Shown here in pieces: positions 26,336 through 26,763 of a stretch of DNA of 64,000 bases. The stretch is from Escherichia phage PhiR41_1. Made by a program: the position numbers and the translations under genes. The notes below the pieces were generated by a model. That model had not been told where the DNA came from, searched no databases, and was given only the letters and a program-made list of their open reading frames with translations. Within the stretch, counting starts at the first letter, position 1. Every line of letters begins with the position of its first letter. The stretch lies in sequence record PV340561; one strand, written 5' to 3'.

Positions 26336-26355
26336 TACTGTACAGATAAACAGTA
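26336..26355. promoter_or_regulatory. LexA (SOS) box
   Basis: TACTGTACAGATAAACAGTA = CTG-N10-CAG with flanking TA/AT, overlapping a TATACT -10-like hexamer, about 20 nt upstream of the UmuD'-like start. Confidence 0.75.
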
Positions 26356-26373
26356 TTTTTGAGGTAAAACGCT

Positions 26374-26763
26374 ATGGGGTACCCCTCTCCTGCGGCGGAT
26401 TATGCTGAGAGCCGTATTTCTCTTGATCAGCAGATAATTAGACATCCTTCAGCGACCTACTTCTTGAGGGCAGCTGATAGCCATCATCGTGAGGGAATAT
26501 TGCAGGGTGCATTGCTGGTGGTCGATTCCTCACTCACTCCTGTTGATGGATCTCTTCTTGTATGTGCTCTGGATGGGGAATATCGCGTAAAAAGATACCG
26601 GAAGTATCCACGTCAGCATCTGGAGGATTTAAGAACTGGTAAGAAGGAAGCATTGCCAAAGGATGATGATGGATGCACGGGCAGCAATGCCGTGTTTGGT
26701 GTGATCACTCACATTATCAACGACGCAAGAAGTGGCGAGTTTGATGATTGTCCTGTGATGTAG
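26374..26763 (+). CDS. umuD: UmuD'-like protein (peptidase S24 C-terminal domain, lacking N-terminal cleavage arm)
   Basis: 129 aa starting GYPSPAADYAESRISLDQ...HPSATYFLRA, colinear with E. coli UmuD from about residue 25; Ser (ADSH) and Lys (RVKRYR) at catalytic positions. Confidence 0.8.
   Translation: MGYPSPAADYAESRISLDQQIIRHPSATYFLRAADSHHREGILQGALLVVDSSLTPVDGSLLVCALDGEYRVKRYRKYPRQHLEDLRTGKKEALPKDDDGCTGSNAVFGVITHIINDARSGEFDDCPVM

Follow-up and report, generated by a model that had tools for sequence, protein, structure and literature searches.

The humD gene and its product

The window analysed here, a 64-kb stretch of DNA from Escherichia phage PhiR41_1 (positions 1–64000), carries on its plus strand the gene humD (26374–26763), which starts with ATG and encodes a 129-aa homologue of pre-cleaved UmuD' with a predicted S24 peptidase fold and a family-specific C-terminal tail, SGEFDDCPVM. 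Upstream of the gene lie a Shine-Dalgarno sequence, GAGG (26361–26364, plus strand; read from the sequence), 9 nt ahead of the ATG, and a LexA (SOS) box, TACTGTACAGATAAACAGTA (26336–26355), 18 nt before the start codon. A toprim gene with its stop codon at 26216 precedes these features, and the next gene downstream is apbC, an mrp homologue convergent with humD (26801–27901, minus strand), from which metG (28059–30092, plus strand) diverges.

The product begins M-G-Y-P-S-P-A-A-D-Y. When it was aligned with K-12 UmuD, the Met1-Gly2 pair fell on Cys24-Gly25 and the alignment ran from UmuD Gly25 onwards, in agreement with a preliminary description of this DNA, which had placed the start of the product at the UmuD autocleavage position. 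An upstream N-terminus with a Cys-Gly site was looked for and is excluded by an in-frame TAA (26365–26367) 9 nt before the ATG, which means that no longer N-terminus can be translated. HumD lacks the Cys/Ala-Gly autocleavage site because the N-terminal arm is absent.

Searches of protein families gave a consistent assignment. The NCBIfam equivalog NF051876, ‘HumD family translesion DNA polymerase’, matched with 215.5 bits (1.7e-64; curated cut-off 120 bits), residues 1–129 aligning with positions 1–129 of the 129-position profile, while the score with NF007621 (UmuD, the autoproteolytic subunit of Pol V) was 84.9 bits, under the cut-off of 110. Further matches were to Pfam PF00717 Peptidase_S24 (4.4e-10), to phrog_811 ‘UmuD-like protein’ in PHROGs (1.7e-52) and, in a sequence search of the PDB, to UmuD' (1UMU, 1.9e-22). 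In an AlphaFold2 model the core reached pLDDT values of 76–83 and residues 1–25 and 121–129 stayed below 50; Foldseek ranked UmuD' chains first for this model with a probability of 1.00, and HumD is accordingly modelled with a UmuD'-type S24 beta fold. These results, together with 90% amino-acid identity to HumD of phage P1, support the view that the 129-aa reading frame encodes a pre-activated UmuD' analogue of the P1 HumD type, as had been proposed at the outset.

We considered, and rejected, a repressor of the LexA or phage CI type (a DNA-binding domain joined to an S24 domain), as all 129 residues are spanned by the UmuD'/HumD match. The lexA model TIGR00498 scored 29.4 bits (cut-off 110.95) and matched through its C-terminal domain alone, and the name ‘LexA family transcriptional regulator’ carried by some HumD homologues is a misnomer.

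Comparison of humD with P1 humD gave dN = 0.049, dS = 0.98 and dN/dS = 0.05, and the gene is under purifying selection. Conservation across the family was assessed in 120 cluster representatives from a search of 5.8 billion proteins, many of which bear the source name ‘HumD family translesion DNA polymerase’. Their lengths cluster at 126–130 aa and 102 of them begin M-G-x-P-S-P-A.

Ser36 and Lys73 of HumD (26476–26484 and 26587–26592) are equivalent to the catalytic Ser60 and Lys97 of UmuD and are kept though self-cleavage is impossible. The Ser60 position is occupied by Ser (66) or Thr (54) in 120 of 121 close family sequences, the Lys97 equivalent is retained in 117 of the 121, and UmuD Met61 is replaced by His in the family. 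Distant orphans, which likewise occur without umuC, lose both catalytic residues: the Ser60 position holds Gln or Tyr, and that of Lys97 holds Arg or Met.

The C-terminal tail, SGEFDDCPVM (residues 121–129, 26734–26760), is predicted to be disordered (AlphaFold2 pLDDT < 50). It recurs as [GA]EFDDCPV[MIL] in about 110 of the 120 representatives. The nine orphan phage homologues that were aligned all carry it with some variation ([ED][FW]DDxP..), and neither of the two full-length, umuC-linked UmuD proteins in the alignment has it.

LexA box, candidate promoter and terminators

The box at 26336–26355 matches the consensus TACTGTATATATATACAGTA at 17 of 20 positions; the three mismatches are all central and both arms, TACTGT and ACAGTA, are perfect. 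None of 100 dinucleotide-preserving shuffles of the window yielded a match as good, and the runner-up CTG-N10-CAG site in the window has eight mismatches. This is the sole good LexA box in the 64 kb, and the near-consensus match first reported for it holds. A second candidate site, CTGTTCCGTGAAACAG (33077–33092), was set aside: it has a poor, GC-rich spacer and sits inside a small ORF of ~100 aa (32961–33274). It is the only other of two CTGT-N8-ACAG matches in the window, a count within chance (23 of 100 shuffles), and we judged it a chance match.

The GenBank record of P1 labels the homologous 20-mer, TACTGTATAAATGAACAGTA, as ‘LexA binding site in the regulatory region of lxr and humD’. When four copies were aligned (the window, phage Cyrano, pCMZE123_2 and P1), the arms TACTGTA and ACAGTA were invariant and the spacer variable, and in Cyrano the flank upstream of the box was unrelated. 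The comparison also took in more distant orphan homologues, 43–72% identical, from phiKO2, N15, HK639, Aeromonas pAEv1818 and Hafnia yong1. A LexA box was found 5' of all ten orphan homologues checked, in differing flanks: 32–39 nt before the start in P1, Cyrano, pCMZE123_2, N15, HK639, pAEv1818 and yong1, 62 nt before it in phiKO2 (where the record itself labels the site as lexA), and, in HK140, ahead of a two-gene operon whose last gene is the humD homologue. That the operator persists in six phage groups whose flanks are unrelated argues strongly for function, and by analogy with the P1 homologue the predicted box at humD would be bound by LexA.

A strict scan returned no sigma-70 promoter at humD. 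Relaxing the hexamer scan produced a candidate (26310–26339, plus strand) with a weak −35 element, TGCACC (26310–26315), an 18-nt spacer and a −10-like TATACT (26334–26339) that overlaps the LexA box, in its left arm, by four bases. Under the same relaxed scan, an xATACT −10 element over the box recurs in Cyrano (TTCAAA-17-TATACT), pAEv1818 (TTCACA-18-TATACT) and yong1 (TTCACA-17-CATACT), with better −35 hexamers than that of the window. The earlier statement that the box overlaps the promoter is thus plausible as regards the −10-like hexamer, although the promoter itself escaped the strict scan. A small terminator-like hairpin reported by the terminator scan at 26311–26323 was set aside, as it is not conserved in pCMZE123_2 or Cyrano.

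Two further hairpins frame the gene. Directly after the upstream toprim gene, a hairpin read from the sequence, AAGGCCAC-AATTA-GTGGCCTT (26233–26253, plus strand), may act as a terminator and would then set humD apart as a separate transcription unit; lacking a T-run, it went unreported by the terminator scan. Between the convergent humD and apbC, the scan detected a strong stem-loop of nine pairs, six of them G-C, AGGTGGTGC-ATT-GCACCACCT followed by TTTTTAT (26775–26795). This humD terminator is kept in Cyrano and pCMZE123_2 and missing in P1.

Carrier element and gene content

The window belongs to an SSU5-like phage-plasmid of ~109 kb. Two flanking 25-kb stretches (1–25000 and 39001–64000) served as queries in the context search; both were 98–99% identical to ‘Escherichia phage CMS-2020a’ (CP054387.1, circular, 109,272 bp), 94–98% identical to Cyrano and, across nucleotide-metabolism and structural modules, 78–80% identical to Salmonella phage SSU5. 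The toprim-humD-apbC junction occurs on E. coli plasmids of ~108–115 kb, and on these sister plasmids RefSeq names the gene ‘HumD family translesion DNA polymerase’ or ‘S24 family peptidase’.

The preliminary description had noted a host-type mrp on the opposite strand as the next gene. That wording is literally right, as the minus-strand apbC is an mrp homologue, but the gene is cargo of the phage-plasmid and not flanking chromosome. A prophage–chromosome junction at mrp was rejected on the ground that the 64-kb window is colinear with ~109-kb SSU5-like phage-plasmids, which contain apbC-metG; the pair is present in Cyrano and in the sister plasmids. From 26801 to 30092, apbC (mrp) and metG form a single 3298-nt block that is 89.1% identical to K-12 mrp-metG and ends exactly at the two stop codons, and the encoded ApbC and MetG are 94% and 98.8% identical to the K-12 proteins. 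The phage-plasmid surveys searched contained no mention of humD, umuD, metG or apbC, and offered no explanation for a second methionyl-tRNA synthetase on a phage-plasmid.

The match to SSU5 stops at ~20.7 kb, and humD lies in a mosaic accessory region between ~20.7 and 45.6 kb. Positions 20700–25700 hold lambdoid-type early genes, among them ead/Ea22-like and DUF551 genes, and parts of this block are ~95% identical to temperate phages of Salmonella and E. coli (VSe13, vB_EcoP-611R6 and BP9); the records matching the 1–25000 query include many Stx-converting phages. Scans of positions 1–64000 found no Rfam family at gathering score and no tRNA or tmRNA gene.

Outside the window, CP054387.1 has a second LexA-type box, ACCTGTATAAGTAACCAGTA (19764–19783), ~30 nt 5' of a 367-aa ORF (18631–19734, minus strand) that we judged integrase-like from its sequence. 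The box is close to the E. coli dinI box, and the element may carry a second SOS-controlled gene.

A polymerase partner for HumD was sought with tblastn, using K-12 UmuC and DinB as queries against the window and the remaining ~45 kb of the 99%-identical CP054387.1, and nothing significant was found; the single match at E ≤ 1 was a 30-residue DinB fragment (E = 0.78). As positive controls, the queries detected each other (umuC and dinB) and the umuC genes of phages in control loci, and we accordingly dismissed the idea that the element hides a Y-family polymerase at another site, in line with the initial claim that no UmuC/DinB-like polymerase gene accompanies humD. The pre-cleaved homologues in P1, phiKO2, N15, HK140, HK639, pAEv1818 and yong1 are likewise orphans, without umuC, while full-length phage umuD genes with a Cys-Gly site lie directly upstream of umuC. 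The presumed partner, host UmuC, is almost always present in E. coli: umuC was detected at ≥80% of its length in 5405 of 5426 complete genomes.

Function and relation to known systems

The explanation that best fits these observations, to which we give a probability of about 85%, is that humD is a self-contained SOS-controlled unit that supplies a pre-activated form of UmuD' to host UmuC. Candidate promoter, LexA box, ribosome-binding site, reading frame and terminator would form a transcription unit of its own. In an undamaged host, LexA seated on the box over the −10 region and start site would keep humD off; DNA damage would activate RecA, LexA would cleave itself and humD would be transcribed. 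HumD would be made directly in the activated UmuD' form, without the 24-residue arm or the cleavage site, and would skip self-cleavage, the slow, RecA-dependent step by which assembly of polymerase V is normally held up. Dimers of HumD would then join the chromosomal UmuC of the host in a Pol V-like translesion polymerase, which would help the copying of damaged plasmid or phage DNA and of host DNA at the cost of mutations. HumD of P1 reportedly forms dimers and binds UmuC and RecA filaments; it is also said to be poorly expressed and to give good complementation from a high-copy plasmid only, which counts against a firm physiological benefit.

Several of these steps lean on P1, for which the same model has been published. 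The position of the promoter and the interaction of HumD with UmuC and RecA are proposed from what is reported for P1 HumD, and 90% identity to that protein suggests that humD could serve as a replacement for UmuD'. According to PMC9603915, humD is a LexA-regulated SOS gene; the P1 product has been reported to complement UmuD' (PMC7092418), and the title of McLenigan et al. (1999) describes HumD as a functional UmuD' homologue that facilitates SOS mutagenesis. UmuD'2C (Pol V) normally forms ~45 min after SOS induction, according to PMC6375631, and a pre-cleaved HumD would bypass this delay. A paper on the Salmonella SOS regulon held no data on HumD homologues.

The simple model of a pre-cleaved UmuD' neither needs nor explains the Ser/Thr-Lys pair and the conserved tail, and both could point to a protein that is mainly a regulator. 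Its targets would be RecA filaments, the beta clamp or Pol III, or else it would heterodimerise with host UmuD, and in this way it would tune host SOS, recombination or induction of the element, with translesion synthesis as a side effect; in a variant of this explanation, the Ser/Thr-Lys pair would cleave host UmuD in trans. The persistence of Ser or Thr at the Ser60 position (120/121) and of Lys97 (117/121) in proteins incapable of self-cleavage speaks for a regulator, as does the near-invariant, acidic tail, predicted to be disordered and missing from UmuD, which suggests an extra binding partner; two sources also present UmuD and UmuD' as ‘polymerase managers’ with many partners (PMC5342242; PMC4045847). 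However, the distant orphans have replaced both catalytic residues, complementation of UmuD' is reported for the P1 protein, which is 90% identical to HumD (title of McLenigan et al., 1999; PMC7092418), and the host partner UmuC is nearly always at hand, so that we consider a mainly regulatory role unlikely. A decaying, 5'-truncated umuDC remnant without current function, its LexA-like sequence a leftover or chance match, would fit a gene that is shorter than umuD, lacks umuC and shows no consensus promoter in the strict scan, but is effectively refuted by the dN/dS of 0.05 against P1 at saturating synonymous change, by a length of 126–130 aa and an M-G-x-P-S-P start kept in 102 of 120 representatives, by a dedicated Shine-Dalgarno sequence and an ATG exactly at the cleavage-site position, by LexA arms that are invariant across diverged flanks in six phage groups, and by a box match equalled in none of 100 shuffles.

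As far as could be searched, the conserved acidic tail is the one family feature that current descriptions leave unexplained. Its likeness to the acidic tip at the C-terminus of SSB (DFDDDIPF) is a lead and not a finding. One speculative and rather improbable reading makes the tail a short linear motif that imitates the SSB tip. Such a tail could anchor HumD-UmuC, at stalled forks, to proteins that bind SSB, or could vie with SSB for these proteins; if so, the phage form of Pol V would be recruited by a route not open to the host enzyme.

As a gene, humD of this element is already known: it is an ordinary, catalogued member of the HumD group, with a curated NCBIfam family, a studied 90%-identical homologue and RefSeq annotation on sister plasmids. 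Our analysis confirms LexA-controlled, pre-activated UmuD' genes as a standard accessory module, one that moves between unrelated enterobacterial temperate elements—P1-like, SSU5-like and N15-like phage-plasmids and lambdoid prophages. In clinical E. coli carrying these phage-plasmids, modules of this kind can increase the mutagenesis that follows DNA damage, a point of relevance to how antibiotic resistance evolves under drugs that induce SOS. Residual novelty is confined to the C-terminal tail and the host-like apbC-metG cassette on these phage-plasmids, and the practical value of the work lies in correcting the context, from a chromosome junction to a phage-plasmid, and in singling out the tail.

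Among the closest known systems is P1 HumD (AAQ14073.1), also of 129 aa and also carried by a phage-plasmid without umuC, with 90% amino-acid identity (12 differences), the common start M-G-[FY]-P-S-P-A-A-D-Y and the common tail SGEFDDCPV[IM]; the coding parts share 84% nucleotide identity. Similarity between window positions 26310–26763 and P1 (2940–3390 in the P1 stretch used) extends from ~60 nt before the ATG, at TGCACCAAAGGTG, to the stop codon, and these limits imply that operator and gene behave as one exchangeable module of ~450 bp. The neighbours differ, with a divergent lxr upstream and phd-doc downstream in P1 as against toprim upstream and the convergent apbC downstream in the window, and so does the carrier, which is P1-like in one case and SSU5-like in the other.

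N15 gp26, phiKO2 gp23, HK140 gp28 and HK639 gp28 are 63–72% identical to HumD and share the pre-cleaved start, the LexA box, the absence of umuC and the tail, but have Thr at the Ser60 position and reside in N15-like or lambdoid genomes beside tail-fibre, dinI, partition or integrase genes. Against E. coli UmuD/UmuD' (PDB 1UMU, 1AY9, 1I4V), HumD is 41% identical over UmuD residues 25–139, retains equivalents of Ser60 and Lys97 and has its LexA box at −36, compared with −37 in umuD. Unlike UmuD, it is devoid of the N-terminal 24 residues and the Cys-Gly site, stands outside a umuC operon, has ADSHH in place of the active-site motif GDSM, and bears a 4-residue insertion before the last strand and ~10 extra C-terminal residues (SGEFDDCPVM). 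The umuD genes of Klebsiella phage ST846-OXA48phi9.2 and Salmonella phage Oslo likewise belong to temperate phages and encode S24-family proteins, 42–46% identical to HumD by tblastn; in contrast to HumD, their products are full length, with an LVQCG or VPCG cleavage site and no C-terminal tail, and the genes are followed by a umuC whose product is 83–87% identical to E. coli UmuC.
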